From Candidatus Dormiibacterota bacterium (GTDB lineage: Bacteria; Chloroflexota; Dormibacteria; Aeolococcales; Aeolococcaceae), in the NCBI GenBank assembly GCA_963754015.1, contig CAVWEG010000004.1, forward strand, positions 262,455-326,454: DNA of 64,000 nucleotides, in the 5' to 3' direction. This document shows positions 8,562 to 63,165 of the stretch, one piece after another. Positions within the stretch are counted from its first letter, which is position 1; every line of letters begins with the position of its first letter. Both the position numbers and the translations under genes were made by a program. A model generated the notes under the pieces. It was not told where the DNA came from. It made no database searches and was given only the letters and a program-made list of their open reading frames with translations.

Positions 8562-8631
<70 letters not shown>

Positions 8632-32174: not shown

Positions 32175-32405
32175 TCATGACCCCGTCAGCGGCGGCGCTG
32201 CTGAGATCAATAGTTCTGGTGGTAGCAGTTTCAGAGCACCCACAACCTCGATTCCAATCAACCTGCCGTTTGCGTCGAAGTCCAGATTCAGCATACCGCC
32301 AATCTTTTTAGGATGACACTTATATGTCGACTTGGCGTCACCCGGGCCGATATGCACCAGGGCGATGTATGCCGCGTCTACGGACGGGTCATAGGTAACC
32401 TTCAC
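32175..32405 (-). CDS. DUF2283-like small protein; predicted immunity/antitoxin for the Rhs C-terminal toxin
   Basis: MKVTYDPSVDAAYIALV...GRLIGIEV matches the DUF2283 signature. GTG start lies 1 nt after the Rhs stop. Confidence 0.8.
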   Translation of the reverse strand: MKVTYDPSVDAAYIALVHIGPGDAKSTYKCHPKKIGGMLNLDFDANGRLIGIEVVGALKLLPPELLISAAPPLTGS

Positions 32406-32406
32406 C

Positions 32407-35400
32407 CTATCCTCCTCCGATGAGCCAGCGAATATACGCTCGAGTCACATCGGCGATCACCGTGACAACAGTCCCTCCAGGGACCTTTCCGACAAAAATA
32501 CCCGAACGCGAATCAAAGTAGCCTGTCCTCAACTCGCCGCTGGCCGGATCATTATATGCAAATGGAGTGCGTGTCATGGCTGCGTCCACCTGAGCTTGAC
32601 TAATGCCTCGGTCGGCCATTTGCTGCGCCGCATGTGACGAGAGATCACATTCGGTGTCGTTGTGGACAAGAACATCGGAGCCGGCAATCCCGATGAAAAA
32701 GTCGTGATCTCTGTTAACTGTGAGGTCATACATCCACCCAGTCCCCGCCACAGACGTGAGTTGCACGACCGTCGCTAGCTGACCATTTGCGGTGAGTAAC
32801 TGGTCACCGATACGAAGATTGAACGCCGGCGTCCAGCTATGCGATGTGACATCCCAGAAGAGGTGATTGGCGGTGGAGTGCACCGTTGACCGCGCCGTTG
32901 TCGTGAGCACCGTGATGTCCATCAGATCGGCATCATCGTGAAGCCATAGAGCCGTGACGGTTTCAGACTGGATCTTCCCAGTCGCAGGATCGGTGGCCAT
33001 GACCTGGTCACCGGCCAACACTTGGCTGATAGGGATCGTGCTGCCGTCCGCCAGGAGCACCTCCGTGCCAGCCGAGAAACTCTCTCCGCCGCACATCGTC
33101 GGAGTGCCAGCGTCGTCACCGATATCTCCAGCTTCCCCGTCGGCTGAGGTCAGGGCATCCCAAGCTGCCGTAGCTCCCTCGTCGGCCGGCAAAAGGGCGT
33201 CAATAGCCGCCCCCACCCACTCGAACAACTCGGCACCTACGAAGCCCTCAGCACAAGCCACCGCCGCATTGACAAATGCGTCGCCCCAGTTGACCTTCCG
33301 TCCGCTCAGCACGTCGGCGATATCCGGGACAAGGCTAATTACAGCACCGACCGCACATCCCTCGAGAAGGAATTGTCCCGTCGGATCCGTGATGTCCACA
33401 GGGTCGCCCGCGGCATACGAGTACAGATCAGTACTTCTGCCGTTGAACCCGAGCGGGTCCTGGCTAATGAAACGAGCCTCGGATGGGCTGTAATACCGAG
33501 CTTGGTCGTAGTCCAACCCAGTGCCGTCATTCTGCTGCCCGACAAACTCGAATGGATTCGCACTGCTCGTTCCGTTCGTCGACGCGTTGCCATATGGATC
33601 GTAGGTGTACGTGGTCGGCACCGCCCCCGACGAGTTCCCCAACCCCACCGTGGTCCCCAACGAATCAGTCAGCAGTGACGACGTCCCGGTGCCGTCGGTG
33701 CGGGAGAATACCTCGTCGAGCCCTTGTCCGGTGAGCGTGCTGGCGGTCACGGTCCCTCCAACCAGGTTCTCGAGCACATTGCCGCCGTCCGTCAGGTAAT
33801 CCGTGGTCAAACCGCCTACAGTCGACGACTGACGTACTCCGAACGGGTCATAGCTGTACGTCGCATTGCTTACTCCGCTTATACCCGTCAGCTGTCCCCG
33901 ATCGTTCCAGCTGTACGTGTTGCTCGGATCGCTGGTCAGATTTCCATCGTTGTTGTAGTGCAGCGTCGATCCGTTCTGACTCGCGAGCTCGTTGTCAGCG
34001 TTATACGTCCACGTCGATGTCGTCGCCGTCGGCAGTGCGACCTGCGAGAGTGTCCCGCCGACGGAGGTACGTTGCCCATCCCCGTCGTACCCATACGTCA
34101 ATGTGCCCACCGTGGTCGAGCCCGATGTGTCGGTTATGCCGGTCACCTGGCTGGCAGCGTCGTAGCCGTACGTCTCAACAATTCCGTCAGGCAGTGTGAC
34201 CGTGCTGGGGCGCAGGTCCGCGTCTGGCACGATGCTAACACTCTGCGAACTGGTGCTTTCACCTGTCAGCGCCCCGGCGGCGTCGTAGCCGTACGTAACC
34301 ATTGAGCCGCTTGATGGTGTCATCGTGTGTCGGTTACCGTCCGCGTCATACGCGTAAGCGACCGATCCTTCGGGACCGCTATCAGAGGTGAGGCGATCGA
34401 ACCTGTCGTATCCGAGAGTGTAGGTGCCTGACGCTGAGTCCACGATTCCGGTGAGCCTGTTCCCTAGGTCATAGCTGTCACTGATCTTCGATTGCTGCGT
34501 TGTAGGTCCCGTAACTCCATAGCGAGCCGTCGCCAGGCGGTTCATCGGGTCATAGGTGAACTTGTCCACCGCCCCGTTCCCGTCCGTGACCTGCACAATG
34601 TTGCCGAGACCGTCATACACGTACGAAGTCGTGTTCGTCAGCGCGTCCGCAACGCTCCCTGCCTGATCCATGTCGTTCGGGCTCACGGTGGTCAGGTTGG
34701 TGTCTGGGTCTTCGACTAAGGTGACGTCGCCGTTAGGATTGTAGGTGTACTGCGTGGTGTCGCCCAACGCGTCTTCCACCGCGGTGACTTGGTTCATCGC
34801 ATCGACGGTGTACTGCGTGGTATTCCCATCGGGGTCCGTCGACTGCAGAACTCGCCCGCCGGCATCAACGTACTGCGTGGATACATTGCCGTCCGGATCG
34901 GCTACCGCCACCAAGTCGCCGTTGAGATAGCTGTAGTAGGTCACATTCCCAAGCGGATCCGTGACCGAGGTCGGCTCACCGTTCTGGGTGGTAGTGATCG
35001 TCTGGTTCCCGAGCGCATCAGTCGCGGTGATGACGCCGACTCCGCCACTGTCGTCTTGGTACCCAATGGTGCTGGTGTTGGTCAGCGGGTCTTCGACTGA
35101 TGCGAGTTGGTGGGATATGGGTTCGTACGTGAAGGTAGTCGTCTCGGCCGACGCGGTTCCGTACATCATCGTGATGGTCAGGACACCTCCATACGCGTCG
35201 TACGTGTAGTGCGCGTCACGACCCAACTGGTCGACGGCGTCGGTGACCTGATGCGTGGTCCCGTCCAACGTATATGTCGTTTCCTCTTGATCGGCAGTGC
35301 CCGATGCATCGGTGGTTGAGGTGAGATGTCCAGAGCTATCGAATGTCGAGACGCTTACATTGCTGTCTGGATCCGTCACAGTGGTCGCAGTGACGCTCGA

Positions 35401-38199
35401 GCCGCTGAGCGTGTAGTTGAACTGGTAGGTACCGGAGTCCGCGTCTGTCTGCAGATGGACGCGTCCATTTGCGTCGTACATCGTTTGGATCCACGTATCT
35501 AGCGTTGGGTCCTCTATAGACGCGATCTGCGTACAGGCGAGGTCGCCACCAGTGCACGTGCCCCAGTTGTACATCGTTGTCTTGGTAGCTGCATCCTCAA
35601 CGGACGTCAACCGCCCCGCGCCATCGTAGCCATACTCGACGCTTCGGCCCGTGTTGTCCGCGGCTTGCGTAATGCATGACGCCGGGTCCATCCCGGTCAC
35701 GCAACTACCCCATGTAAACGCGATCCAACGGCCGTCAGGCGAAGTCACCTGCTCTAGCTCGGAATTGGTCGCGTTCCGCTCTACACTGATTGAATTCCCA
35801 TACTCATCCGTGATCCCGGTGAGTGACGGATGGTACGTCCCGAACTGGTACTGAGTTCCATTGGGCATGGTGACGATGAGATCACTGTCGACAATCTCGT
35901 CAAGGGTGGCACCCGCATAGCTCGTTGAACCCGTAGCGTCATAGATATAGCTTGTCCCAGAGGGAGCAAAGGTCACGTCAGCCCCATCCGGCATTTGCAG
36001 GTCGTAGTTGCCGCTCGAATCGGGCGACACGAACATATCGAGGTTGTCGCTCTGGCTGTACCCGAATGCGCGTAGCTCTGGATCGCCCTGGCGGTATGAG
36101 CGGGTGACTGAGATGGGAAGGATGTCTGGCAATTCGAGATCGGTGTGGGTGCTATTCCAATTCCCGCTTTCGAGGTCCACAGGATCGCCGGCGGCGAGCA
36201 GGCTATCGACTAGTGGACAGAAGAGTCCGAGGATCGACCCCGCGAGTACGGTGCACAGCGGGTCCGACGAGATCGAATAGGACTCGATGTACTTGAGACG
36301 CAGGGTCGCCGGAGGGACGATATGCGCTGCATCCGCGCTGACCCTTCCCACCCCATACGCGTACCAGCCGGTGCCGTTCTTTGAGGCATCGTTGTCATCA
36401 AATTGGTAGTACGACCCCGGGCGCGCCTGCGTCAGGTTCGGGTAGATGATCTGGAGTCCAGGCCCGGCCACCACGCTGGCGTCCGACGGCTGCAATGTGT
36501 AGAAGAAGGACATGCCTGGGGCCAACGGAAGAGGCGTCCGCGTCAGCGGTGTCTCCGTCAACGAAAGCTGGTGAACGACCTTTCCATAGTGGTCGCGTAT
36601 CACTGTTCCTTTGGGAATCACGACTTGAAGCCCCGGAATCGCCGGCGATGAGTACACGATCTGCTTGGTCGTCGGCGACGCTATGGTGATCGCGTTAGCC
36701 AGATCGAGGGCCGGTAACCACACCGTCCATGGCAGCACCGCTGTGACGTGTGCCGTGACAACCACGCCTTCCTCGTAGGCGCCGTGATTTATGCTGTCGG
36801 TCGGCTCTGTGGCGTCGATCCACAGTTCCTGATGCCCCGCGGCGACCCCGGTCAAGAGAAAACGTCCCTGGCTGTCTGTCGTCGTTAGCTTCTTCCCAAT
36901 AGAGACGGACACACCCTGCAGCGGGAGCGAGTTCACATCTTCGATGACCCCAGCGAGCGCTGTAACGCTCTTCGCGGCCTGTAGCGGCGCAACCTCGGAC
37001 GCACGTCCCGAGCTGATCGGCGCGGGCGTCTCAGCCGCGACGAACACCTGGCTCAGCTCGGCATTCGCCGAAGAACTCACCGATCCCGCTGGCGTCACCA
37101 GAGTGACCGTGCCCGGGAGCGTTCCCCGCGGTACTCGACCGCTCAGCCTTGTCGAGGTCGCCGACACCACGTCGACATCTGTCGCGCCAACTCGAAGGCG
37201 GTCCAGTCCACTACTGCTTGCAAAGTGCGCACCTGTGACCGTGAGGGTGATCCGCGATCCACTCGTGGCTGCGCTGACAGCGCTGATCGTCGGGGCCTGA
37301 GCGGCGGTTTTATTGCTACCCGCACGGTGCATCAGACCACCGGTCGTTCTGCTGATGGAGAGTAGGTTGCCGGCGGCGTCGTAGTTGTATGTAGCCGTGC
37401 CTGCCGCGGTCGTCACTGTCGAGAGACGACCGGCGGCGTCATAGGTATACGTCGCCCCAGTTCCCACTACCGTGAACGTGGCCACGATGTCGCCCCACTC
37501 AACTGCGGTGGACAGGGTGGCGCCATATGACTGCGAGCCTGTGCTACTCGTGACCTGGTAGGCGCTCTGAACGTTGTTCAGGAGACTGGTCGGCGTCGAC
37601 TGATGCGCGCTGTTGTGCGTGTACCCGGCCGTCTGCGCAGAGATCGTTGGCCCAGAGTTCCACCCGATCCCGGCCACCACTAACTCGATTGCCTGCGCTG
37701 TCGCGCTCGTTGAACCACTGCTCGGTGCCGTGCCGCTGCTCGAACTCGCTCCTGCATCCACGCCCAGCGGGGTCGTCGGACTGACTCCCGCGAACTCCTG
37801 CACCGATTCCACGATCGTTGCCGACGCACTCGCATGTACCGTCACCGAAGACACCGCTGACGCGTCCGCCGCGTAGAACATGCCGGTCACGTTGGTGCCC
37901 GACGCCTTGGTCAAGACGGTGGCGAAAGTGTCCCCCGCCGAGTCAGTCACCGCAGGCGAGCCGAAGCTGCTCACACCCCGCAGACTCGCAGTGACGACGA
38001 GCAGGTCCCCGGCTGAGCTCGTGATTGTCGCCACGAGCGTCGCGGACTGGGTCGTCTCGGTGGCTCCAACCTCTTGCACCTGGGCGATCCCTGATGCCTT
38101 GACTGCCGACGCGCCGGATGCGAAGAAACTCACAGTTACGACCGAGGCCGCCGCGATCGCGCTGCCGAGAGCCCGCCAACGCCGCTTCTGCCTTTGCAT
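32407..38199 (-). CDS. Rhs/YD-repeat polymorphic toxin (1930 aa): signal peptide, shared N-domain, IPT/TIG-like and CarboxypepD_reg-like domains, YD-repeat shell, Hint domain, C-terminal toxin
   Basis: Dozens of YD repeats (YTYDAAGRL, YGYDGAGRL and others). Shell-plug motif DPVDLESGNWNSTHTDLELP. Core end YDQARYYSPSEARFISQDPLG...GDPVDITDPTGQ. Hint domain and short variable C-terminus. Confidence 0.95.
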   Translation of the reverse strand: MQRQKRRWRALGSAIAAASVVTVSFFASGASAVKASGIAQVQEVGATETTQSATLVATITSSAGDLLVVTASLRGVSSFGSPAVTDSAGDTFATVLTKASGTNVTGMFYAADASAVSSVTVHASASATIVESVQEFAGVSPTTPLGVDAGASSSSGTAPSSGSTSATAQAIELVVAGIGWNSGPTISAQTAGYTHNSAHQSTPTSLLNNVQSAYQVTSSTGSQSYGATLSTAVEWGDIVATFTVVGTGATYTYDAAGRLSTVTTAAGTATYNYDAAGNLLSISRTTGGLMHRAGSNKTAAQAPTISAVSAATSGSRITLTVTGAHFASSSGLDRLRVGATDVDVVSATSTRLSGRVPRGTLPGTVTLVTPAGSVSSSANAELSQVFVAAETPAPISSGRASEVAPLQAAKSVTALAGVIEDVNSLPLQGVSVSIGKKLTTTDSQGRFLLTGVAAGHQELWIDATEPTDSINHGAYEEGVVVTAHVTAVLPWTVWLPALDLANAITIASPTTKQIVYSSPAIPGLQVVIPKGTVIRDHYGKVVHQLSLTETPLTRTPLPLAPGMSFFYTLQPSDASVVAGPGLQIIYPNLTQARPGSYYQFDDNDASKNGTGWYAYGVGRVSADAAHIVPPATLRLKYIESYSISSDPLCTVLAGSILGLFCPLVDSLLAAGDPVDLESGNWNSTHTDLELPDILPISVTRSYRQGDPELRAFGYSQSDNLDMFVSPDSSGNYDLQMPDGADVTFAPSGTSYIYDATGSTSYAGATLDEIVDSDLIVTMPNGTQYQFGTYHPSLTGITDEYGNSISVERNATNSELEQVTSPDGRWIAFTWGSCVTGMDPASCITQAADNTGRSVEYGYDGAGRLTSVEDAATKTTMYNWGTCTGGDLACTQIASIEDPTLDTWIQTMYDANGRVHLQTDADSGTYQFNYTLSGSSVTATTVTDPDSNVSVSTFDSSGHLTSTTDASGTADQEETTYTLDGTTHQVTDAVDQLGRDAHYTYDAYGGVLTITMMYGTASAETTTFTYEPISHQLASVEDPLTNTSTIGYQDDSGGVGVITATDALGNQTITTTQNGEPTSVTDPLGNVTYYSYLNGDLVAVADPDGNVSTQYVDAGGRVLQSTDPDGNTTQYTVDAMNQVTAVEDALGDTTQYTYNPNGDVTLVEDPDTNLTTVSPNDMDQAGSVADALTNTTSYVYDGLGNIVQVTDGNGAVDKFTYDPMNRLATARYGVTGPTTQQSKISDSYDLGNRLTGIVDSASGTYTLGYDRFDRLTSDSGPEGSVAYAYDADGNRHTMTPSSGSMVTYGYDAAGALTGESTSSQSVSIVPDADLRPSTVTLPDGIVETYGYDAASQVTGITDTSGSTTVGTLTYGYDGDGQRTSVGGTLSQVALPTATTSTWTYNADNELASQNGSTLHYNNDGNLTSDPSNTYSWNDRGQLTGISGVSNATYSYDPFGVRQSSTVGGLTTDYLTDGGNVLENLVGGTVTASTLTGQGLDEVFSRTDGTGTSSLLTDSLGTTVGLGNSSGAVPTTYTYDPYGNASTNGTSSANPFEFVGQQNDGTGLDYDQARYYSPSEARFISQDPLGFNGRSTDLYSYAAGDPVDITDPTGQFLLEGCAVGAVISLVPDIADVLSGRKVNWGDAFVNAAVACAEGFVGAELFEWVGAAIDALLPADEGATAAWDALTSADGEAGDIGDDAGTPTMCGGESFSAGTEVLLADGSTIPISQVLAGDQVMATDPATGKIQSETVTALWLHDDADLMDITVLTTTARSTVHSTANHLFWDVTSHSWTPAFNLRIGDQLLTANGQLATVVQLTSVAGTGWMYDLTVNRDHDFFIGIAGSDVLVHNDTECDLSSHAAQQMADRGISQAQVDAAMTRTPFAYNDPASGELRTGYFDSRSGIFVGKVPGGTVVTVIADVTRAYIRWLIGGG
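32410..32658 (-). other. C-terminal toxin domain of Rhs (83 aa), DUF4258-like
   Basis: LSSHAAQQMADRGISQAQVDAAM resembles the H-A-x-x-R-M-x-x-R-G-I start of DUF4258, a family classically paired with DUF2283. Confidence 0.6.
32659..33093 (-). other. Hint (pre-toxin HINT) domain of Rhs (145 aa)
   Basis: Starts CGGESFSAGTEVLLADGSTIPISQV and ends DFFIGIAGSDVLVHN, the Cys1 and terminal HN signatures of Hint/intein-fold domains. Confidence 0.85.
37450..38090 (-). repeat. Shared N-terminal domain module (Rhs copy)
   Basis: About 79% aa identity by hand count over ~207 aa to 41860..42500, with long identical DNA runs such as CTGATGCGCGCTGTTGTGCGTGTACCC. Confidence 0.85.
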
Positions 38200-38202
38200 C
38201 GC

Positions 38203-41200
38203 TCAGTGCCCTCGCAACGAATAGTGGGTGCTTACCTGGGTTGAGGTAAGCGCCGAGTTGTAGACCGCAAGTTCGTCGAGGCCGCCGGACCAGGCGTACA
38301 GCGTTGGCCCTGAGTAGTAGGGGGCGTAGCCAAGCTCTAACCCGACGGCATTCGCGGTGCTCGGTGTTGTTGCAAACGACTGCGGCGATCCCAAGCTACT
38401 CCCATCCAAATACGCAGACACCGAGGTGCCGTTGTACGTAACGACGAGGTAATGCCAGGCACTGTCGATATCGGTGCCGCCTGGGTATGCAAATTGCACG
38501 TCGTTGCCTCCCGTGATCACGTCCAGCCCTGCCGACGATGTGGCAATGGCGAATTCCTGTCCAACCCCGGTCATGACCGTTGGACCCCACGCCACAATTT
38601 CGCAGTAGCTTGTCGTCGCACACGAGGTGGTAGACGCAAGATTCACCCAGACTTCCACGGTGCGTGCGCTGTTGCCCGTCGGCAGCGAGGTGGGGTCAGT
38701 CGTAAGCGTCGTCGCCGAGCAGCACGCCCCATTCAAGGTAATCGCCGGATCCGTGCCCACAGCACCCGGTTGGTCGGGGGTAACTCCGTTGCCTCCGTCG
38801 AAACGGCCCTCGAACTCCGTTGACGACGAGTCCGCGAAGACGGGTCCGTGTGCTTCCGAGAAACGGTAGTACGGACCCGCACCGTCGGCAATCACCGCAC
38901 TCGCGTAGGTCGATGACACTCCTGCCGGCGAGGACGAGTTCGTTGATGTTGCGGTCGGCCCTGAGCCCCACGCGTTCGTGGCAGTGACCGTGAACGTGTA
39001 CGCCACGCCTCCCGCGAGTCCGTCGATCCGCGCGGCAGTTTGCGTACCCAACACATACACGGCATTGGCAACGTGCCCACCGCCCGTGGCTTGGACGAGG
39101 TAGTAGTTGATCGGAACCCCTCGAGGTCCGGGCACGCCCCACGACACGGTGGCTGCATTGGATCCTCCGTAAGCGCCGTGCACCAACATCGGTGCCCCAG
39201 GCTGGGAATGCCCGCTTTGGGCGAAGTGCGTCGCGATCGCCGACCCGCTCAACACGGCGGGATAGACAGCCACATCGTCCAGCCCACTATTCGCGCCGAG
39301 CGGCTGGTCGCACCCGCCGCAGTATACCAATCCACCGATGACCAAAGGCCCTTGCGTCGTCGTGAGCGCGGGACTGACCGCCGCGCTACCAACCAGCTGC
39401 CCGTCGAGGTAAGCGGTCGCCGTCGTGGTCCCGTTGTAGGTCACATCGAGAAGGTGCCAGCTCCCATCGTTCACTGGATGAGACGGCGACCAGTTATAGC
39501 TGTGCCCATTGGTGTAGATCCCGAAGGACCCCTGGCCGTAGACACTCGAGTTGCTGACGACCAGTGACAGCGACTGATCTGTGCCTGTACCGCCGTAGCT
39601 CAAGACAGTTTGATACGCGTCGCTCGTTGTGCGGATCCAGCCTTCAAGCGTCACAGCTGACCCCGCAGTGGGCTCGCCGGCCCCTACGAGATATGTGCCG
39701 ATAGTATTCCCGTTCGGTTCCACTGCAGCGTCGCCGTCGGAGCTCACTGCCCCTGCAATGCCACTGACAAACCCGCTGCCAGCAAGTGCGTGGTACGGGA
39801 CTCCCAACGATGTGGTTCCCGTCGAATCGGTCATTAACGGACCGCCGCTGTCATCGAGGCGGTAATAAAAGGCCGGGCTGTCTCCCAGAATGGTGCTTGC
39901 ATATGTTGTCGCGCTACCGGTTGGCGTGTGGGCACTCGATGCTCCAACACTCCCCGAACCAAATGGGTCGATCCCATGCACCTGGAAGGTATAAGACGTC
40001 CCTCCCTTCAAACCTTTCAGTGTTGCGGATGTTGCCGAACTCGCCACAGACGTTGAGTTGCGGGCCGTACCGCCGATGTATGCCGTCACGACATAACCCT
40101 GTACTGTCGGCTCAGTTCCTGGAACGGTGGCCGTCGACGCCGTCCACGAAACTGTTGCTTGGTTGCTCCCGCCGGAGACGACCGCGGTCACGCTCCCGGG
40201 AGCAGACGGCACGGTGTTCCCGCTCGCCGTGAAGTGCGCGAGAATCTGGCTCGAGCTGAGTGCAGCTGGGTAGATCGCCACCTCATCCAGCCCACTGTTG
40301 CTCCCTTGCGGTGGATCGCACCCACCGCAGTACACGAGCCCCCCGATCGCGAGTGGTCCGACGGTCGTAGCGAGGGACACCGATCCATATGCAGTCCCTA
40401 CCGACACTCCGTCCATGTAACCCGTCACAGTCGAGCCGTCATATGTGACGTCGAGGAGATGCCAGTTGCCATCGTCCACCGGCCGCGCTGGTGTGAACCA
40501 GTACGCGCTACTGTCGGTCACCACACCGAAGTCGCCGCCGCCGTACGCTAAGTTGTTCGATGTCATCAGCGAGAGTGACTGGCCGCTAGCAGTGCCGCCA
40601 TAGCTCAGCACGGTTTGCTGGCCGGCGCTCGTTGTTCGAATCCAGCCTTCCAGTGTTACTGGCGAGGTCCCGGTTGGCTCCAGAAGCGGGCTGAGGTCAC
40701 TCCCCACGACATTCCCATTGGGCTCCAAGGCAGCGTCGGTATCACTACTGAGCGCGCCACCAATACCAGTTGTGGTGCCGGCGCTGGCCGACGCCGGATT
40801 CGCACTCCCAGAAGAGTCGGCCATCATTGGCCCGCTGTCGTCCAAACGGTAATATGCCTTTGGACTATCAGCCAGAACCGTGCTCGCATAGGTCGTTGAG
40901 CTGCCCGTCGGCGTGTGCGAGCTCGAAGTTCCTGCCGTACTAGGCCCGAACGCGTTCACCGCGACCACCTGGAAGGTATACGCCGTGCTTCCCTTGAGTC
41001 CAGTTAGGGTGGCGCTCGTGGCAGTGCTGCCAACTGAGGTGGCATTGCCCGCCGCACCACCCACGTAGGCGGTGGCGACATACCCTTGCACGGCGGCTTC
41101 GCCGCTCGGGACCGCTGCGCTCGATGCCGTCCAAGTGACCGTCGCCTGGTTGGCGCCCGAAATCGCTGCCACACTCCCCGGCGCCGTCGGGACTGTGTTG

Positions 41201-42624
41201 CCGCTCGCTGCGAAGTGGCTCATGATCTGACTAGAACTCAGCGCGCTCGGGTAGAGCGCTACCTCGTCAAGCCCGCTGGTGCTCCCTTGGAACGGGTCGC
41301 AGCCGCCGCAGTACATCAGGCCACCCACGTCCAGTGAACCGGCGGTCGTGGTGAGCGTCACCGAACTGATCCCACTCCCGACCGCGACCCCATCGAGATA
41401 GCCTTCGAGGGTCGTTCCGTTGTAAGTGACGTCGAGCAGGTGCCAATTACCATCGTCGACAGGGCGAGAGGGTGTGAACCAGTAGAAACCGCCATCGGTC
41501 ACCACACCGAAATCGCCGCCGCCGTAAGGCTGGTTGTTGCTAGTCATCAGCGAGAGTGACTGGCCGCTTCCGGTGCCGCCATAACTCAGCACGGTTTGCT
41601 GTCCGGCGCTCGTCGTCCGAACCCATCCCTCTAATGTCACCGCTGCTGCTCCGGTTGGCTCTCCCGCCGTTCCCGTCTCGGTGCCGACCAGATTCCCATT
41701 CGGCTCGGCCGCAGTGTCACTGTCGCCGCTCAGCGCCCCCGCAATACCGTACGTGAAGCCGCTGCCGTATGTCCCACTCCGCCCATTTCCGGAGGAATCG
41801 GCCATCACCGTGCCGCTACTCTCGTCGAGGCGGTAGTAGAACGAGGGAGCGTCGCCAACGACCGTCGCCGCGTACGACCCGCCCTTGAATGTGGCGACGA
41901 TGTCTCCCCAGAACGTCGAGGCGGACAGCGTTGCTCCGTATGCCTGCGTTCCCGTGCTGGCGGTCACCATGTATGCGCTCTGCACGTTGTTCAACAAGCT
42001 CGCGGGCGTCGACTGATGCGCGCTGTTGTGCGTGTACCCAGAGGTTTGCGCAGAGATCGTCGGTCCAGAGTTCCAGCCGATCCCCGCCACGACCAACTCC
42101 ACCGCCTGTGCCGTGGTCGCCGTCGATCCGCTTGCGGGGGCTGTGCCCGTGGAAGTCGCTCCCGCGTCGACATCCAACGGTGCGCTCGTCCGAACGCCGG
42201 CGAACTCTTGGACTGACTCGACGATCGTTGCGGATGCGCTCGCGTGCACCGTAACCGAGGTCACCGCCGGGGCGTTGGCGACATAGAACATCCCCGTGAC
42301 ATTCCCCCCTGTGACCTTTGTCAGCACCGTCGTGTAGGCATCACTCGCGGAGTCCGTTACAGCGGTTGCTCCAAACGAGCTCACTCCGCGCAGGCTTGCG
42401 GTGACCACCAGCAGATCACCGGCAGTGGTGGTGACGGACGCTGCCAACGTCGTTGACTGCGTACTTTCCGTGGCGCCGACCTCCTGCACCTGCGTGATCG
42501 CTGACGCCGCAACCGGTATTGCAAGAGCGCCGGCGGTCACGCCGATGAGTGAGGCGAGCGAGAGAGTTCCTACAGTACTCAGCGCAATCCGACGACGCCA
42601 CGGGGTGGACGTAAGTCTCGCCAT
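38203..42624 (-). CDS. Giant secreted LamG/FN3 modular protein (1473 aa): shared N-domain + 4 LamG-like + 3 FN3-like modules
   Basis: Signal peptide MARLTSTPWRRRIALSTVGTLSLASLIGVTAGALAIPVAASA. Repeated blocks YYRLDDS...LEGWIRTTS...DDGNWHLLDVTY...GLDEVAIYPAALS (LamG). Each is followed by P-APGSV...ATVSWTAS...YTFQV (FN3). Stop lies 3 nt before the Rhs start. Confidence 0.9.
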   Translation of the reverse strand: MARLTSTPWRRRIALSTVGTLSLASLIGVTAGALAIPVAASAITQVQEVGATESTQSTTLAASVTTTAGDLLVVTASLRGVSSFGATAVTDSASDAYTTVLTKVTGGNVTGMFYVANAPAVTSVTVHASASATIVESVQEFAGVRTSAPLDVDAGATSTGTAPASGSTATTAQAVELVVAGIGWNSGPTISAQTSGYTHNSAHQSTPASLLNNVQSAYMVTASTGTQAYGATLSASTFWGDIVATFKGGSYAATVVGDAPSFYYRLDESSGTVMADSSGNGRSGTYGSGFTYGIAGALSGDSDTAAEPNGNLVGTETGTAGEPTGAAAVTLEGWVRTTSAGQQTVLSYGGTGSGQSLSLMTSNNQPYGGGDFGVVTDGGFYWFTPSRPVDDGNWHLLDVTYNGTTLEGYLDGVAVGSGISSVTLTTTAGSLDVGGLMYCGGCDPFQGSTSGLDEVALYPSALSSSQIMSHFAASGNTVPTAPGSVAAISGANQATVTWTASSAAVPSGEAAVQGYVATAYVGGAAGNATSVGSTATSATLTGLKGSTAYTFQVVAVNAFGPSTAGTSSSHTPTGSSTTYASTVLADSPKAYYRLDDSGPMMADSSGSANPASASAGTTTGIGGALSSDTDAALEPNGNVVGSDLSPLLEPTGTSPVTLEGWIRTTSAGQQTVLSYGGTASGQSLSLMTSNNLAYGGGDFGVVTDSSAYWFTPARPVDDGNWHLLDVTYDGSTVTGYMDGVSVGTAYGSVSLATTVGPLAIGGLVYCGGCDPPQGSNSGLDEVAIYPAALSSSQILAHFTASGNTVPSAPGSVTAVVSGGSNQATVSWTASTATVPGTEPTVQGYVVTAYIGGTARNSTSVASSATSATLKGLKGGTSYTFQVHGIDPFGSGSVGASSAHTPTGSATTYASTILGDSPAFYYRLDDSGGPLMTDSTGTTSLGVPYHALAGSGFVSGIAGAVSSDGDAAVEPNGNTIGTYLVGAGEPTAGSAVTLEGWIRTTSDAYQTVLSYGGTGTDQSLSLVVSNSSVYGQGSFGIYTNGHSYNWSPSHPVNDGSWHLLDVTYNGTTTATAYLDGQLVGSAAVSPALTTTQGPLVIGGLVYCGGCDQPLGANSGLDDVAVYPAVLSGSAIATHFAQSGHSQPGAPMLVHGAYGGSNAATVSWGVPGPRGVPINYYLVQATGGGHVANAVYVLGTQTAARIDGLAGGVAYTFTVTATNAWGSGPTATSTNSSSPAGVSSTYASAVIADGAGPYYRFSEAHGPVFADSSSTEFEGRFDGGNGVTPDQPGAVGTDPAITLNGACCSATTLTTDPTSLPTGNSARTVEVWVNLASTTSCATTSYCEIVAWGPTVMTGVGQEFAIATSSAGLDVITGGNDVQFAYPGGTDIDSAWHYLVVTYNGTSVSAYLDGSSLGSPQSFATTPSTANAVGLELGYAPYYSGPTLYAWSGGLDELAVYNSALTSTQVSTHYSLRGH
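41860..42500 (-). repeat. Shared N-terminal domain module (LamG-protein copy)
   Basis: Paralogous to 37450..38090, as described in that entry. Confidence 0.85.
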
Positions 42625-42710
42625 TCACCATCCTGACGGCGCGACAACGTGGTCACGCCCCATCACCGCCATGGGAACGCATCCCTCGGTTTCGGCCGAG
42701 CGAGCGCAGC
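42588..42710 (-). repeat. 123-bp segment (first 13 codons plus 86 bp of upstream leader of the LamG gene) duplicated at 59446..59568
   Basis: 122/123 identical to 59446..59568 by hand alignment; the single difference is at the start codon. Confidence 0.9.
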
Positions 42711-43628
42711 GTAGTGCGGTCCGGCAACAAACGCAAGTAGCAGCAATGTAACAGCGCGAGCCATGCGATCATTGTGCTTCCACAGCTGTATCCATCTGTA
42801 CGCCGCATGACTAATCGCGGTGCCGCCAGTTTCGCCTATGCTCAAGCTCTTGAGGCACGTCGACGTAGACGCATCCGCGCATGTATATGACGTCTAGCAG
42901 GGGCAGAGCACCTGCAGCATCGATGTCCGCATCCAGGTTACTTCATGCGAGTGCGAGCCGTCGGCGCGTCCATCGCTTAACCGGAGCCACAGATCCCCCA
43001 GCGCTGGCGGTAACGTACCCGCTGTGTTGATCTTGGGGGTGCGGACCCCTCCTAATCACAGCCCACTAACCGTAGCGAGTGGCCTGCATATCTGGCCTTC
43101 CGGCTGCGCTCAGTAGAAGTGGCACATCCGCCGGACGCGTTCGTCCGAGATACAAGCGTGGAAAACAGGAGCCTACCGCAGACCTTGACCGCTGGCGCAA
43201 CGATCGGGATTCTGGCCGCGTGGGATGGGGCGCTCCTGATGCGATTTGTCTACTGCGGCATCACGCCACTGTTCGATCGGTTCACTGATGCCGGTCTAAC
43301 CGCTGGAATGGGTCGATAAGCATCGACGGTCAAGTCGCTGGCGCGAATACCGCCGTGAAGTAGGTGGCACACGCCTAGCGAAGCGGTCAACTCTGGCGAA
43401 GCTGGCCCGACGCCGATGCGCGCTGCTTCGAGCACCCCCACGCGTCGAGTTCCCCGACGACGGCACAGACGCGGGGTGCGGCGGTTCCTCTGACGCCCAC
43501 CCCGCGCCGCCGAGGGTGTGCGGTTTTCTGACGCCCTCTCCGCCGCCCGTCTGGCATAGGAAAGTGCCGCCCAGCCAAAGCTGAGCGGCACTCCAAGAAC
43601 CGACCGGCAGTGTTTAGGCTACCTCCGG

Positions 43629-56347: not shown

Positions 56348-56363
56348 GTCGATTGTTGACGAT
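56348..56363. promoter_or_regulatory. 16-bp palindromic motif, site 5 (GTCGATTGTTGACGAT)
   Basis: 14/16 match; about 325 bp upstream of secreted-protein gene 56688..57317. Confidence 0.45.
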
Positions 56364-56687: not shown

Positions 56688-57317
56688 ATGCGACTTCGCA
56701 GGGATATTGTCGCGGGCGCAGCCGCGCTAGCGATCGTCGGAGCGGGTCTAGGCGTCCGGCCGACCTCGGCTAAAGCGTCTACGTCATGCGGCGCTTCGTC
56801 GACACTGCTCGGCGACTACGCGCAGTACTTCACCTTCAATGGCTTCACAAACGGCGCGTTGTACCAGATCGAGTTGCGAGGCACCTGGAGCAAGAAGAAT
56901 AAGGCTAACGATTGCATCTGGGGACGCGTAACCTACACGGCACAGGCGAGCTTGTTTTTCGACGTTGACGGTACCGCCTACCCCGCCGCAGGGCTCAGTG
57001 GAACCATTTGGTACTCGCCGAGCTTCGGTGTGTGGGATGCCGACCCTTACTCGGTAGAGAGCTTGAGCCAATCGTGGTACGGCGTCAGTAATAACTCGTC
57101 CGAGCCCGGTCCAGAGGATCCCAGCGTCCTACAGGTTCAGGGCCAGATGATAGCTGGCCCTCCGTCGTGGTCCGGCGATTGCATCGTTATGAATCCTGAA
57201 GGAAACGTCGGTCCGCCATACACTCAGGACTCTTATTTTGCCGACGCAAGCGGCAACACGTACACGGCTGGCTCCAACGTGCCAGGGAACAACACAACTC
57301 TTATCTGCCCGAGCTGA
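56688..57317 (+). CDS. Secreted cysteine-containing protein
   Basis: GGAGGAG upstream; signal peptide MRLRRDIVAGAAALAIVGAGLGVRPTSAKA/S, then TSC; further Cys at NDCIWG, GDCIVM and LICPS. Confidence 0.75.
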   Translation: MRLRRDIVAGAAALAIVGAGLGVRPTSAKASTSCGASSTLLGDYAQYFTFNGFTNGALYQIELRGTWSKKNKANDCIWGRVTYTAQASLFFDVDGTAYPAAGLSGTIWYSPSFGVWDADPYSVESLSQSWYGVSNNSSEPGPEDPSVLQVQGQMIAGPPSWSGDCIVMNPEGNVGPPYTQDSYFADASGNTYTAGSNVPGNNTTLICPS

Positions 57318-57973
57318 CGCCCCGTCAGTTCGGCTTGTACACCGTATTGAGGGCCGCCTACGCGGAGGTCGCGGCGCGGCCCTTAGGAGGTCTATATCCG
57401 TACTGACCCTCGCCTCTCCCGAGCGGCAGCAGACACGAGTTACACCTCAGCGCAAGACGTGCGGCTATACCAAGCGCGAGCTGCACGTCTTCGGGATGGA
57501 AGGTTGTGTCTCAAGTCAGTGCGAGTTGAACGAGGCGTCCGCGAGACATGGCGCTTGTGACGCGCAGTCGAGGTGCAGCGACCTGCGACGGCGGGCGATC
57601 GTTGGGCCACTGGTTACCGGCCCGAGGCAGCGCACGCGCTAGAGAGCGAGCTGATCTGGAAGCGCCTTTCTCGCGGTTGCGTGAGGACCAGTCAGCGGCG
57701 CGTATCGTTCGCCGCCGAACGCCAGATAGCGCGTGACCGGCCGGCGTACGTAGCCGTGCCGCTCCGCTGAATTGGTGTTCTCGACGTGAGGACTCGGCGA
57801 CGTCTTGTGGACTCGCGTTCACCACGTGGCGATTTGACAGCGAGAGGCTTACAGCATCGATTCGCCAGCGCGTGGCACCTTGCGCCGCACTCCCGCTACG
57901 ACAGAGAAGCTTGCAGCTAGTGCGGTCTGCGAAGTCATCGGTGCAGGTGGTCTAAGTCTCTGACTCAAGCGAT

Positions 57974-57989
57974 GTCGATTGTTGACAGT
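57974..57989. promoter_or_regulatory. 16-bp palindromic motif, site 6 (GTCGATTGTTGACAGT; equals the consensus)
   Basis: Lies in a gene-poor stretch just left of the IS1595 remnant; no obvious intact downstream gene. Confidence 0.45.
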
Positions 57990-58249
57990 GATGCGCGCTC
58001 ACTGCAAACTGGATTGGATCCTTGATATGACCACTTACGCAGACAATCGGCGAGTAGCTTGGTTCGGCGCTGTATCGTTCACGTATGGTGCTGAGCTCGC
58101 TTGACTCTCGCTTGCTCACTGCGCATGATCGTCACGCGCGCGGGTCCTGCACAACCACAGTGCTGTCCGCTTGGCCGACACGTCGTCGACGATCCGCGCT
58201 CACGCAACTTCCCGGCCGATGGTGCGCCCGCCATCGTCAGCGTCGATCA

Positions 58250-58690
58250 TGTGGCGACCGGACTCCCGCTCAACCAGGGGGCTCGACGCTGTGATGGATG
58301 CCGGAGATCACGCGCTGAACAGGCTCCAAAAGTTCTCGATGCCATGGGTATGGACGCGGCCACGCACATGCGCCTCGGAGTGGTCGATGACCTCATGGGT
58401 GTAGTCCTGCTCAAGGCCACGATATGACGCGAACGCGTCTGTGTAGACGATAGAGCCAGGAGCAACGTTGGTCCCAACCTCGGAGCGAAGCACATGGCCG
58501 GTACGCGTCGGAACCATCTTGGCGCGGACTTCGCCGTCGCGCACTCGTGGCTCGAGCCACGATCTTGCCCGAAGGCCGGATTCCTCACCAGCTCGCACTA
58601 TCAGAAGGGTTGCGGCGGGCTCGACCGCTGACGCTCTCCAAACCAGTTCTAAAGGGACTCTAGATCGCCGGAGGGTGATCACTGTGTGAG
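58250..58690 (-). mobile_element. IS1595-family (ISXO2-like DDE) transposase remnant, truncated and frameshifted
   Basis: IVYTDAFASYRGLEQDYTHEVIDHSEAHVRGRVHTHGIENFWSLFSA, then a stop. The family pattern continues after a frame change (VISGIHHSVEP). No intact N-terminus or terminal inverted repeats identified. Confidence 0.6.
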
Positions 58691-59080
58691 AGGTGGCTGG
58701 CAGCGACGTGGATCATCTTGCTTCCCGCTCCGCGTAGCGCGAAACGAGAAGTCAAGTCTCAGATTTGGTGTTTACTGTCGAAGGCGTCTGCGCCGACGAC
58801 CGTACATGCGCCGTCCGTCGCTAGTACCTGTTCACACGCGATTGAGCAAGCAAGATGCGGACGGCACACGTCCACGCCTCGGCACTGCTCGCGGTGGGTG
58901 GACTGGATGCCTTCGCCGGGGCGAAGCCGGATTTGACTGCGGCAATTAGCGCAGTTCATCGCAGACCAACATTAGCTCAGGTCCCTCGCACCTGGGGTCG
59001 CCGCGCCTAAGTTGGAGTAAGTCGGACGCCGGCGTGAATCGCTGCCCATCGCTATCGTGCTCGGTCGCCTACCATGAACG

Positions 59081-59350
59081 CTAGCTTTCGTCAAGTTGGT
59101 CCTCGACCGGCTTACCCGATATTCCCTGTCTCACAAAGCCGGTTCGTCGATTGATGATAATAGGCTCTCCTCCCGCGAGGGTATCGCGTATGTTGCCGCT
59201 CGCAATGAATTCGCTGGTGTTATAGCCCACTACCCAGCAATGTGCATTGCCAGTGACAGTCGTAATCGCGAGGGCATCGGGGACCTTGACTTGGATTGCG
59301 TTCTGGAGAAATTCCTCCGCCAGCAGTCTTGCCTGCTCCTCAGTAACCAT
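59081..59350 (-). CDS. Orphan immunity protein, YrhB/Imm35-like
   Basis: MVTEEQARLLAEEFLQN...NAHCWVVGYNTSEFIASGNIRDTLAGGEPIIINRRTGFV matches the remembered YrhB-type immunity pattern (gWvF-y-s..yl.tgd....l-G-gPiiVdk-tG). The ATG overlaps the TGA of a short upstream toxin-tail ORF. Confidence 0.7.
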   Translation of the reverse strand: MVTEEQARLLAEEFLQNAIQVKVPDALAITTVTGNAHCWVVGYNTSEFIASGNIRDTLAGGEPIIINRRTGFVRQGISGKPVEDQLDES

Positions 59351-59445
59351 CAGCCTCCCCCAGTCGTCATAAGAAGAAAGAACTTCACGTACCCAGCGAA
59401 CGATGCCCCGGTCCCCGTCTGAAAGTCGATAAAGTTAACAGCGCC

Positions 59446-59568
59446 TCCGACGACGCCACGGGGTGGACGTAAGTCTCGCCAGTCACCATCCTGACGGCGC
59501 GACAACGTGGTCACGCCCCATCACCGCCATGGGAACGCATCCCTCGGTTTCGGCCGAGCGAGCGCAGC
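59446..59568 (-). repeat. Second copy of the LamG-gene leader/5' end, start codon mutated to CTG
   Basis: 122/123 identical to 42588..42710. 59482 is G where 42624 is T, turning ATG into CTG. Reads LARLTSTPWRRR, then diverges to a stop. Confidence 0.9.
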
Positions 59569-59724
59569 CCTTTGGCGACCGGGCACCCGGATGACGTGCC
59601 CGTCTGCCGGTTCACGAGAGAACCACCGAATTGACCCGCACACGCAATCCACGCTGCCCTGCGAGGAACTGCCGAACACGGAGTAACAAGGCTACCCCAA
59701 GCAGCCGCTGACTAAGGAGCAAGG

Positions 59725-60308
59725 TTGAACATTCGCCGCAAGATCGGCGTGGGGACAATTACGTTCGTCGCAACTCTGGTCGCGTTCGGGGCATCGTCCC
59801 GACTCGCGCGTCCGGGCAATCGTTCTCGGTCGCCGCGACCACCACCGCCACGACCAGCTCAGCCACGGACATGCTGAACGTGCCGCTCAGTTCAACGCTG
59901 CCGGCTGGGGACTTGCTACTCGCCACGGTATCGATCACAGGTCCGGCCGATGGAGACGACTGGGACCCCGGGATCACCTTCTTCAGCAACACTACCTGCA
60001 CGCTGCCCTTTCTGGGGTCCAGCGCCTACACCTCCTATGACGTCATTTCGTACAACGACGGCAGCAGGACCACCGCTACCATGGTGGCTGTCGAGTTCAA
60101 CGTTGCGGTGAAGTGCATGATGGTCAACGTGGCCGGTGGCAACGCCTCATACGCTGTGAGCGTTGACGACGTTCATCCATCCAGTGCCGGGACATTCGGA
60201 CTTCTCGAAGACAACGCACCCACCCATGCCAATACCACAGGTGAGAACATCGCCGCGACCGCCTTTGATGGCCCCTACACCGGGGTTCGCCTGGACGTTG
60301 CGAGCTAG
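59725..60308 (+). pseudogene. Secreted protein gene with the signal peptide and mature part in different frames
   Basis: AAGGAG upstream of TTG 59725 gives MNIRRKIGVGTITFVATLVAFGAS (signal peptide), then runs to a stop at 59874. The mature-looking part (QSFSVAATTTATTSSATDMLNVPLSSTLPAGDLLLATVSITG...) is in the frame of ORF 59871..60308. Confidence 0.45.
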
Positions 60309-60821
60309 TTGTCGAGGGTGATGCGGCACCAAGCGTCAGCGACGGCACCGACACCCCCGCGTGGACCATCGGCGCGAATGCCCAGGGAACCGTGACCGGG
60401 TCCTACACCAACGCGCAGACCAACGTGGTGACTATCGCGGCCAGTGGGCGTCGCAACCCCTGACCGAATCCCAAACGAAGTCCGAGCAGGTGCTTGACTC
60501 TGCTTGGGTTTTTGAGTGCAGCTGAACTAGATCCCCAACTTCTTGGGGGCAAGGCCCGGTGGAGCAGTCTGCCGGGCCTTTCGCATGCCTGCATGATGGC
60601 CGATCTGTCTGCTTACCGTAGCCGCCGCTACGCCGAACACACCACAAGCGCAGCGCCGCCCGCTACGTTGAATCAGCCCGCCCCTCAATCATCCGCCGCT
60701 TCGTGCCTTGCTCGATGATCGCGCCGAACGCGGCTGTCTGGATCACGCTGGCAACGACCAGGTCGATGGCGATCGGGCCAAGCGTCAGCACGCCACCCTC
60801 GCCACGTCAGAGCATATCGTC

Positions 60822-61820
60822 TCATCCGTTACGAGCCAATCGACGGACTCGCCGTAAGTTCGCACGCAGGCGTGCGAGCGCTTCGCGCTTAAATAAAAGT
60901 GCTCGTTTCTCAAGCGGACTCACAACCATGCCGACGAGCGCGACGCCCGTGGAAGTCGCGTTCCCAGCGCCAACTGCTTCAGTATCGCGAACGAGGCTAA
61001 CGGATCGCAGTTGCCTGGCGCGTAGCAAATCACGATCGACCGACGCATCGAGGAGGCGGAGACCAACGGTGAATTCGTGCGATCCGATCTCCGTCGGAAA
61101 GAATGAGGCCACCTCGAAGTCGATGAGATCAAGACGGGCGAGCTTCGCAAAGAGGGCCAAGAACGAATCGGGGGTGAACACGTGACAGTGAACATCCACG
61201 AACTCGTTCTTCTCTTTCATGCGTCGACAGGCTTCGAGCGCGGCGACGTCAGCATCGTCGACATGTGCCGGAATGGTGGCGCTGTAGTCGGCCACGCCGA
61301 CCCACAAAGAGTCCGCGTCAACCATGCCGGCTATCGCCTTGGAGTAGAAGTCGTAGGCTTGTCGGTAGCTCGGTTGGCGCAGGTTTCGGAGGTAAGCGTC
61401 CACGACGTCACTGACGTGGGTGATCTCGCGATTGATATCGAACGAGTACCGTTTATCGGGAATCACGAGGGAGAAGATGCCACCGGGTGGCAACACAGCA
61501 GCCACCTCAGCTATCCATCCCACCGGATCTGGAATGTGCTCGATCACGTGTGAGGCGATGACGTAATCGAACGGCGCATCAGCTCCGACCGCGTCGGCGA
61601 TTGTCTTGTTATCACCAACGACGTAATCGACGTCTACTATCCTTTTGAGTCGGTTCTGCATCCCTGGATTCGTCGCATACTTCTGCTTGAGCGCTTCGCT
61701 GCTGGCATGATCGAGGTAACGGATCGGCCCTTCGTCCTTGGTAACGCGCGGCGTCGCTAACGGCCCGATCTCTAGACCACGCATGACGGCCACGTCGATG
61801 TTCATTAGTTCAGGACGCAT
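60822..61820 (-). CDS. Class I SAM-dependent methyltransferase
   Basis: FDYVIASHVIEHIPDPVGWIAEVAAVLPPGGIFSLVIPD is the typical post-motif-I/II region of Methyltransf_11/23-type enzymes. Confidence 0.8.
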   Translation of the reverse strand: MRPELMNIDVAVMRGLEIGPLATPRVTKDEGPIRYLDHASSEALKQKYATNPGMQNRLKRIVDVDYVVGDNKTIADAVGADAPFDYVIASHVIEHIPDPVGWIAEVAAVLPPGGIFSLVIPDKRYSFDINREITHVSDVVDAYLRNLRQPSYRQAYDFYSKAIAGMVDADSLWVGVADYSATIPAHVDDADVAALEACRRMKEKNEFVDVHCHVFTPDSFLALFAKLARLDLIDFEVASFFPTEIGSHEFTVGLRLLDASVDRDLLRARQLRSVSLVRDTEAVGAGNATSTGVALVGMVVSPLEKRALLFKREALARLRANLRRVRRLARNG

Positions 61821-62232
61821 GATCGCCTCGAAGGGATGCGGTCGGTTGGTGCAGCGCCAGTCGGCGCTAATCCCAGCAGCGGCCGCGGTGTTGGCCGCGC
61901 AGCTGGATTAAGCGCTTTGGCGCTGCCCTCGAATCGTTTCAGCCTGGGCACTTGAACCTGAATTGTATGCGGGCTCCGAATGAGGAGCGATATGCTACCG
62001 GCTCTTCATATCGCAAGGGGAACGCAGGCGGGCCGGCGTCGTCATTGGGGGATCTGGACACGCAACCGGGTTGGTGGCCCGTTGGAGAATTCAGCGGCTA
62101 CCGCGTCTTCGCACGATTGTGCTTGCTTCGACGCAACTCAAGATCGGCACCTCAAGACGCGGAGTGCTCAACACGATCGACACGGCGCGAACCCTTGGAC
62201 GCAGTCGGGTGCAACTCTCAGGTGACAGTGGG

Positions 62233-62685
62233 TCAGTGAGGAGGCGTGAGGGTGAGCGACCAAGGGCAACCGATCGCCCCGACCGTTCCACGCTCTGGTA
62301 CAGGGAGCGACCACGTGGCTGCGCCCGGTGGCATATAACCGGAAATCCCTCTCCATCGCCCAGCCGTCAAATACACCGACCCGTCGTCGTGACCTGTGGA
62401 GCCCTCCGGTTCGCTAACCGCGCCACGCGGACTGACGAGGCGAAACGTGGCGAAAGGAACACAGGGTTCCAACGGGAATCCAGAGACCCGCACCTGCGGA
62501 TACGTCAGGGTGAAACGGTAGGTTCCGGTCTCCGCGATTGGAATGACGGCCTGGACGGCCCCGGTCCAGGACGGCTCCGTCCCGGCTCGGCTTGTGATCG
62601 ATGTCGCGACTCGCGGGTTTGACGCACATCCGGCGAGCAGCCCGCACAACGCCAAACTCGCCAAGAGAGTTGATCGGCTACGCAT
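62233..62685 (-). CDS. Lipoprotein
   Basis: MRSRSTLLASLALCGLLAGC-AS contains a canonical lipobox (LLAGC). The internal ATG 62685 is preferred over the ORF-track start. Confidence 0.7.
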   Translation of the reverse strand: MRSRSTLLASLALCGLLAGCASNPRVATSITSRAGTEPSWTGAVQAVIPIAETGTYRFTLTYPQVRVSGFPLEPCVPFATFRLVSPRGAVSEPEGSTGHDDGSVYLTAGRWRGISGYMPPGAATWSLPVPERGTVGAIGCPWSLTLTPPH

Positions 62686-63165
62686 CTCACAAGGCTTACG
62701 CGCCGGATGGTCATAAAGTTCCCCGGCCTCGCGAAGGCTCAAGGTGATCGATCGTCCTGCCAGCCGGTTCCTGTGCCCTCGTTGGCCTACTCGGTCCCTC
62801 GGCACAAAATAACAGCGGAACGCCGACAGAAAGCACCATGGCGGCAGCGAAATTGTTCAGCGTCGACGGAGCGGGCGCGCGCCGACGTGGGATGACCGTC
62901 CTAAGACGAGTTGGGGGACGGCCAGGGTTGGGCGTCCGTTCGCGCGACCTGGGCACCCTGCGCGCTCGGGCTTAATGACTGCCGCCCGCAGCACGCGTAC
63001 AGCGGCCTTGCAGACTCCGAGTACGACGACGACGCCTTAGTGGCCGGAGCCGTCGTTGATGCGCGTCGTGTGCCGCTGTAAGGAGCCCATCCTGAGTGGC
63101 AGAGAAGCGATCAACCGACGAGCTCCGCGCTTCTTGGAGACTTTGCTGCTATCGCAATGACGGAA

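Follow-up and report, generated by a model that had tools for sequence, protein, structure and literature searches.

Locus B (positions 59081-59568, minus strand) of the window, i.e., the whole 64,000-nt stretch of DNA that was analyzed, is best read as a wrecked polymorphic-toxin module, which probably originated by one internal deletion in a second LamG-Rhs(Tox-PL1)-Imm35 operon. It consists of (i) an intact gene for an Imm35-type immunity protein, (ii) the last 31 codons of its cognate toxin, and (iii) a near-identical, 123-bp copy of the 5′ end of the LamG-Rhs operon that resides elsewhere in the window. Toxin loci ordinarily decay in this way; what is unusual is the junction to the resident operon 5′ end, and the locus represents a known kind of object and no new system. 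Its value lies in providing a clean, datable case of polymorphic-toxin decay, in which the toxin was lost and the immunity gene kept, with a junction that preserves both parents and makes the event reconstructable from sister strains. The host is probably a member of Candidatus Dormibacterota, a poorly studied soil lineage in which Rhs systems are essentially undescribed, and no literature naming both was found. For annotation purposes, the 54-codon ORF that spans the junction is better treated as a chimera and not as a gene, the CTG “LamG start” as a relic, and the 89-aa gene as an orphan Imm35.

Gene organization of locus B and the resident operon

The features of the two loci and their surroundings are the following:

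32175..32405, minus strand: DUF2283 protein, 76 aa (Pfam PF10049, E 3.5e-12)
32407..38199, minus strand: Rhs toxin, 1930 aa, with RHS core, PT-HINT, and a DUF4258-like C-terminal tip (Pfam, NCBIfam)
38203..42624, minus strand: secreted Laminin_G_3/fn3 protein, 1473 aa, first gene of the resident operon (Pfam)
42588..42710, minus strand: copy A, the native LamG leader together with 37 nt of coding start (upstream and operon homology to L004)
-126 relative to the LamG start, upstream of the copied 86 nt: TGTTACATT
58308..58682, minus strand: IS1595-family transposase fragment (Pfam PF12762, E 2.7e-14)
59081..59350, minus strand: intact Imm35 gene, 89 aa (Pfam PF15567)
59350..59514, minus strand: hybrid 54-codon ORF (ORF list; also called by a gene caller on contig L001)
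59353..59445, minus strand: 31-codon C-terminal remnant of a Rhs toxin of the Tox-PL1 type (Pfam Gln_amidase, papain fold) (BLASTP, family ending)
59432-59440: TGTTAACTT
59446..59568, minus strand: copy B, the ectopic 123-bp 5′ end of the LamG-Rhs operon (122/123 identity to 42588-42710)
59446-59482, minus strand: coding part of copy B, 37 nt, with the start changed from ATG to CTG at 59482
59483-59568, minus strand: leader of copy B, 86 nt
59530..59483, minus strand: uORF of copy B, intact, 15 codons, MAVMGRDHVVAPSGW followed by a stop

The resident operon opens with the 1473-aa ORF, in which Pfam recognizes four Laminin_G_3 and three fn3 stretches, and the Rhs gene begins 3 nt past its end. 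The 1930-aa Rhs product carries RHS repeats, a Rhs-associated core, and PT-HINT, and the match of its tip to DUF4258 is weak. The 76-aa DUF2283 protein is probably the immunity or antitoxin partner of this tip. A related genome, L004 (ENA ERZ25039482, 1.29-Mb contig), possesses a LamG-Rhs operon with 85% DNA identity to window positions 42884..32847, the toxin tip and immunity gene of which are unlike those of the window. On the 3′ side of the resident Rhs gene, the window (30587-32175) and L004 (18814-19766) are wholly unlike: the former has the DUF2283 gene plus ~1.6 kb with a 462-aa plus-strand ORF lacking a Pfam match, the latter has an immunity gene encoding a HEAT-repeat protein, and homology is back at window position 30587.

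The 123-bp repeat

Positions 59446-59568 and 42588-42710 are identical at 122 of 123 positions, as the preliminary description had claimed, both in a MAFFT alignment and in a repeat search of the window, where they constitute family D3. Blastn stretches the match to 59439-59568 and 42580-42710 (128/131, one gap), and outside the 123 bp the similarity ends on both sides except for a gapped 6-nt CAGCGC. Copies A and B are direct repeats in the same orientation with a spacing of 16,858 bp. The assignment of the repeat to an upstream leader and the coding start of the LamG/Rhs operon also holds, with copy A comprising the 86-nt leader, 12 codons, and 1 nt of the 1473-aa Laminin_G_3/fn3 ORF. The sole mismatch (59482 G vs 42624 T) turns ATG into CTG on the minus strand, and after the copied start copy B reads LARLTSTPWRRR, then RRC, then a stop at 59434-59432, so that the start-codon change and the early stop were both correctly described.

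Copy A is native and copy B ectopic, because homology to L004 runs on upstream, and downstream through the operon, only at the 42.6-kb copy, where the upstream part extends for ~175 nt further (to 42884) and is patchy beyond. Sequence divergence marks copy B as a recent copy of A and not an old paralogue, since it differs from A at 1 of 123 positions, whereas over these 123 bp its identity to the L004 orthologue is 94.3%.

Both junctions of copy B are real, as they are carried by independent short-read contigs. In the Logan contigs of run ERR11523676, L001 corresponds to 59475..57094 (99.87%) and L018 to 63012..59539 (99.91%), and each ends exactly 30 nt inside the repeat. A k=31 graph is expected to stop there if the repeat is common to another locus. 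Misassembly is ruled out by the coverage of both copy B junctions in L001 and L018.

The toxin remnant

Between the repeat and the Imm35 gene lies a frame that reads GAVNFIDFQTGTGASFAGYVKFFLLMTTGGG up to a stop codon at 59350-59352 and that, on the basis of its homology, is a genuine C-terminal remnant of the cognate toxin of Imm35. Its end (...FIDFQTGTGASFAGYVKFFLLMTTGGG, then stop) had been reported accurately, including the overlap of its TGA with the ATG of the 89-aa ORF at 59081..59350 (minus strand). Together with the preceding G, the stump is identical at 20 of 31 positions (65%, BLASTP E 3e-11) to the C-terminus of the Rhs toxin of L003, a protein that ends in ...GHVWNAVNQGGIVRFPDFQSGMGASFKGYKSFFFLLTSGGS and whose last ~110 residues match PF15644 Gln_amidase / “Papain fold toxin 1” (E 2e-11). 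By tblastx, it shares 63-73% identity with L002, L003, and L016. A profile search with the toxin domain and tail recovers 22 database proteins with the common ending ...GHVWNAVNQGGx[IV]RF[IP]DFQSG..ASF.GYK.F.FLLT.GG[GS], followed by the stop.

Homology of the stump to the Tox-PL1 C-terminus opens exactly at the repeat boundary and covers the last ~12 residues of the Tox-PL1 domain plus a ~19-residue C-terminal extension. The 31-aa stump and the 54-aa hybrid ORF both lack a Pfam match, and the homology is established by pairwise comparison to family members. The catalytic segments NCxxC ... GHV[WF]NAVNQ, which we take to carry the papain-like Cys and His, are missing from the stump, which starts after GHVWNAVNQ and has copied LamG sequence upstream of it. 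The toxin is dead because both of these segments are gone, and a comparison of 56000-60820 with Tox-PL1-bearing loci finds no other Tox-PL1-like sequence near locus B.

The lost toxin was most likely a Rhs protein with the same architecture as the resident Rhs, given that the Tox-PL1-tipped Rhs of L002 is colinear with the latter (37% identity over 1277 aa, including the post-cleavage linker). The proposal that both ends of one toxin gene are present needs a correction: the 3′ piece is the end of a cognate Rhs-type toxin, and the 5′ piece belongs to another gene, that of LamG.

In the hybrid 54-codon ORF, codons 1-23 stem from the copied leader in a non-LamG frame and the final 31 from the toxin tail. 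Its end coincides with the Imm35 start, which makes translational coupling into Imm35 conceivable.

A degenerate copy of a 16-bp motif, GTCGATAAAGTTAACAG, had been described at the junction. No second copy exists in the window at ≤3 mismatches, and on the minus strand the sequence encodes VNFID of the toxin tail. The 9-mer GCGCTGTTA, which recurs in the -126 region upstream of copy A, was noticed post hoc, is toxin-coding, and is attributed to chance.

The Imm35 immunity gene

The 89-aa gene is an intact Imm35 immunity gene with its own ribosome binding site. Its product matches PF15567 with 36.2 bits against a cut-off of 27.5 (E 6.5e-9, residues 6-82 of 89), which bears out the immunity-family affiliation first proposed for it, and a strong Shine-Dalgarno sequence, GGGGGAGG, is located 4-5 nt before the ATG, inside the stump, where start and stop codons overlap as ATGA. 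The protein is equal in length (89 aa) and 39-47% identical to homologues encoded behind Tox-PL1 toxins, and an alignment of five sequences (the window Imm35 and four homologues) has 28 invariant columns, including W39. Imm35 is listed as paired with Tox-PL1 and is characterized as an alpha+beta protein with a conserved W and [ST] (Zhang et al. 2012, PMC3482391). A search of 5.8 billion proteins with the window Imm35 returns itself and one cluster at 48% identity, a metagenome scan with the alignment adds nine further Imm35 loci at 43-49% identity, and among solved structures there is no sequence-level match to Imm35 or to the Tox-PL1 domain.

Imm35 proteins typically have ~85-90 aa, and their genes directly follow those of Tox-PL1 (or Ntox40) toxins. 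In L003 and L002, the Imm35 homologue lies 1-90 nt behind the Rhs gene, and in L003, L010, and L013 it directly follows an intact PF15644 toxin; the window Imm35 is preceded by a 31-codon stump of such a toxin, not by an intact one. The tail and Imm35 have a GC content of 0.54-0.55, the resident tip 0.57, the DUF2283 gene 0.54, and the LamG and Rhs bodies 0.61-0.63. The value for the tail and Imm35 is typical of exchangeable tip/immunity modules.

Most likely, Imm35 persists as an orphan that confers immunity to Tox-PL1 toxins delivered from neighboring cells. A protective role against the toxins of neighbors has been proposed for orphan immunity genes elsewhere (PMC5361080).

Imm35 homologues with 48-49% identity also stand alone beside housekeeping-type genes in L009, L014, and L015, with no upstream toxin or stump (the protein encoded upstream in L009 resembles pyruvate phosphate dikinase), which makes solitary Imm35 genes a common occurrence.

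Origin of the junction

A Rhs-type toxin with a Tox-PL1 (papain-fold glutamine-deamidase) tip would once have been encoded directly upstream of Imm35, and illegitimate recombination would have taken all of it but the last 31 codons, leaving the stump joined to a same-orientation, near-identical 123-bp copy of the resident operon 5′ end. The probable route to this arrangement begins with a second LamG-Rhs(Tox-PL1)-Imm35 operon that formerly occupied locus B. One large internal deletion would then have run from LamG codon 13 to toxin codon -31, removing ~10 kb if the operon was resident-like, and the ATG to CTG change would be later or irrelevant. An internal deletion is favored because the two pieces share a strand and keep the order of the operon, with the 5′ piece upstream. 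At the breakpoint, the last codon of the repeat, GGA, coincides with the would-be first Gly of the conserved GG of the toxin family, microhomology of ≤3 nt is possible, and the LamG sequence as well as the tail has a GCGCTG hexamer at a distance of 1-2 nt from the junction.

Copy B has a further novel junction at its upstream edge (-86). One deletion leaves this edge unexplained, and an extra event that placed the operon copy at locus B is therefore needed. An intact ancestor or another allele of locus B is absent from the results of the 5.8-billion-protein search, the genome-collection scan, and the profile search. The best named relatives of the methyltransferase adjoining locus B are Dormibacteria MAGs; the genome-collection scan with this methyltransferase yields one 2.7-kb Dormibacterota contig, and L006 and L007, reached via methyltransferase homologues, have no synteny with the window past the methyltransferase. 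Among the 22 profile-search relatives, none is near the tail of the window, the closest tails being ~65-73% identical. The joining by deletion that was first proposed is plausible in view of the order and strand of the pieces. The comparison with related genomes that was proposed for tracing the ancestral toxin leads to Tox-PL1/Imm35 pairs in L003, L010, and L013 and to none at locus B.

The serious rival to the deletion, to which we give a distinctly smaller but still appreciable chance, is a templated patch. Here, locus B would have held a Rhs-Tox-PL1-Imm35 module without a LamG-type 5′ end, and the 123 bp would have been copied as filler into a repaired break or deletion by end-joining or replication template switching. 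Such an event accounts for the novelty of both ends of copy B (59445/59446 and 59568/59569), which the deletion does at one end only with the help of an extra step. The shortness of copy B and its near-identity to A point to a recent event with A as the source, short microhomologies exist at or near the tail junction, and a second LamG-Rhs operon has left no other trace, there being no LamG/Rhs similarity near locus B besides the 123 bp. The patch, however, needs two coincidences, namely that the source happened to be the 5′ region of the one other Rhs operon in the window and that it was inserted in the same orientation and operon order, and direct evidence of such templated insertions did not emerge for this lineage.

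A lesser rival, and an improbable one, is the import of a truncated orphan, whereby the stump and Imm35 arrived pre-truncated, as a decayed module like those known from metagenomic orphan arrays, by horizontal transfer or IS1595-mediated rearrangement and the 123 bp was joined separately or at integration by homology-facilitated illegitimate recombination. Decayed Tox-PL1 stumps before Imm35 do exist independently in L008, L011, L012, and L016, the tail and Imm35 are low in GC, and there is a proposal that effectors are displaced through homology-facilitated illegitimate recombination (PMC5361080). The IS1595 remnant is present as claimed, at 58308..58682 on the minus strand and 399 bp downstream of the Imm35 stop, yet it is a short relic on the far side of Imm35: it spans only positions 49-125 of the 153 of the DDE profile, scores 48.6 bits against NCBIfam NF033547 (below the cut-off of 75), is thus not a full-length transposase, and its neighboring ORFs have no transposase match. 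Import also leaves unexplained why the stump and the operon 5′ end abut in the correct polarity.

The same-orientation direct repeats 16,858 bp apart could finally be read as attL/attR repeats of an integrated 16.8-kb element or as a chimeric assembly, but this has next to no probability, an integrative element being ruled out by L004 synteny at the upstream flank of copy A and not of copy B and by the lack of an integrase or recombinase among the ORFs scanned between the copies, and an artifact by the independent short-read contigs.

The conserved leader

The 86 nt that were copied represent a conserved 5′ leader, which holds a small uORF, and not a demonstrable promoter. Between L004 (8606-8691) and copy A (42625-42710, minus strand), the leader is identical at 84 of 86 positions, the first 37 coding nt at 33 of 37, and the adjoining segments at 75-94%. 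This degree of conservation between species is unusually high, considering that the operons are ~85% identical. The 15-codon uORF lies inside the leader, with its TGA abutting the LamG ATG (TGAATG), and the single substitution within it between L004 and the window is synonymous (GTT/GTC).

The preliminary description spoke of a duplicated promoter and of an immunity gene that stayed under the leader of the former toxin gene. In the promoter sense, neither statement is supported: a consensus scan of 58900-59900 and 42400-43400, confined to the sigma-70 type, finds no sigma-70-like site, and the 86 nt contains zero TA dinucleotides and hence no TANNNT -10 element. Upstream of the native copy, a stretch of 190 nt has a lone TANNNT, namely TACATT at -126, with TGT before it, which is conserved in L004 and located outside the duplicated segment. 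“Duplicated leader” or “5′ UTR” is the justified wording, and “duplicated promoter” is not. A structured RNA element in the leader is not supported either, as the leader has no Rfam family match and its folding energy is no better than that of shuffles (z -0.4 and -0.6).

It is conceivable, though doubtful, that the 86-nt leader serves LamG-Rhs operons of this lineage as a cis-regulatory module and that its copy before the orphan Imm35 represents regulatory capture rather than debris. Were this true, orphan immunity would share the post-transcriptional control of toxin production, and the 54-codon hybrid ORF would couple translation into Imm35.

Relation to known systems

Locus B fits the description of an orphan immunity gene with an effector remnant, having an intact Imm35, a 3′ remnant upstream, and no functional cognate effector nearby. 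Known examples include the T6SS immunity arrays of Vibrio cholerae (Kirchberger et al. 2017, PMC5361080) and the polyimmunity loci of polymorphic toxins (Zhang et al. 2012, PMC3482391). Like these orphans, locus B retains an intact immunity gene without a functional toxin and a 3′ piece of the effector upstream, is presumed to protect against the toxin of neighbors, and probably originated by illegitimate recombination. Unlike orphan immunity arrays, it lies 16.8 kb upstream of the resident operon with no array at the 3′ end of a toxin cluster, and its stump is fused to an operon 5′ leader and start instead of a newly inserted effector-immunity module.

Orphan toxin-immunity modules are reportedly also known from Rhs and CDI systems. 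In these classical orphans, which are found downstream of the main rhs gene, the toxin domain is complete and is accompanied by core or PT-HINT coding sequence. Locus B resembles them in being part of a Rhs polymorphic-toxin system, in having a tip/immunity GC content below that of the core, and in sharing a direct repeat with the main locus that could in principle mediate recombination. It differs in that only 31 toxin codons and no core are kept, the shared repeat is the operon 5′ end, the location is 16.8 kb upstream of the operon start, and no complete toxin domain is present. With the Tox-PL1 (PF15644)/Imm35 (PF15567) pair, locus B has in common a bona fide Imm35, a homologous stump, and the same stop/start overlap, but the deletion of the Cys and His segments of the toxin means that the two are not a functional pair.

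Decayed relatives take several forms. In L008 (JGI 3300086352, 1008-1463), a 61-aa ORF ending in GVMRFPDFQSGMGASFDGYDSIWFLLTSGGS and a stop directly precedes an 89-aa Imm35 and carries the same ~31-aa tail, and this orphan sits within an array of PT-HINT orphan fragments. Strong similarity of L008 to intact toxins opens at the same Gly codon as that of the window stump, with a weak in-register RG[IF]V upstream. A breakpoint or hotspot shared between the window and L008 is not claimed, because the weak similarity of L008 continues and the other loci decay elsewhere. The Tox-PL1 sequence before Imm35 is degenerate in L011, N-truncated in L012, and frameshifted in L016. In L002 (4080-4277), Tox-PL1 is frameshifted relative to the near-identical gene of L003 (980-1086), such that the called toxin terminates prematurely and the conserved tail falls into a different frame; either this reflects a sequencing error, or the toxin before an intact Imm35 was inactivated by a second route.

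Other features of the window

At 59725-60308 (plus strand), a signal-peptide-like 50-aa ORF (MNIRRKIGVGTITFVATLVAFGAS...) runs into a 145-aa ORF (59871-60308) in another frame, and the two represent either a frameshifted secreted-protein gene or separate ORFs. The frame break is not a long-read assembly error, as window and short-read contig L018 agree here without an indel.

The regions 8919-9053 (minus strand) and 8565-8628 (plus strand) hold a decayed, frameshifted fragment of a Rhs-associated core, which shares 46.6% identity with the resident Rhs at residues 1535-1592 (E 1.5e-6), and, ~300 bp from it, a tRNA-like 3′ fragment (...GGGGGTTCGAATCCCTCTCCCTCCGCCA), in which ARAGORN calls no tRNA. 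The core fragment is a second Rhs relic of the window and possibly marks an old island boundary.

Four copies of a 31-nt element with 74-87% identity recur at a spacing of ~500-545 bp in 467-2073, and 3119-3150 forms an inverted arm that is 97% complementary to 1003-1034.
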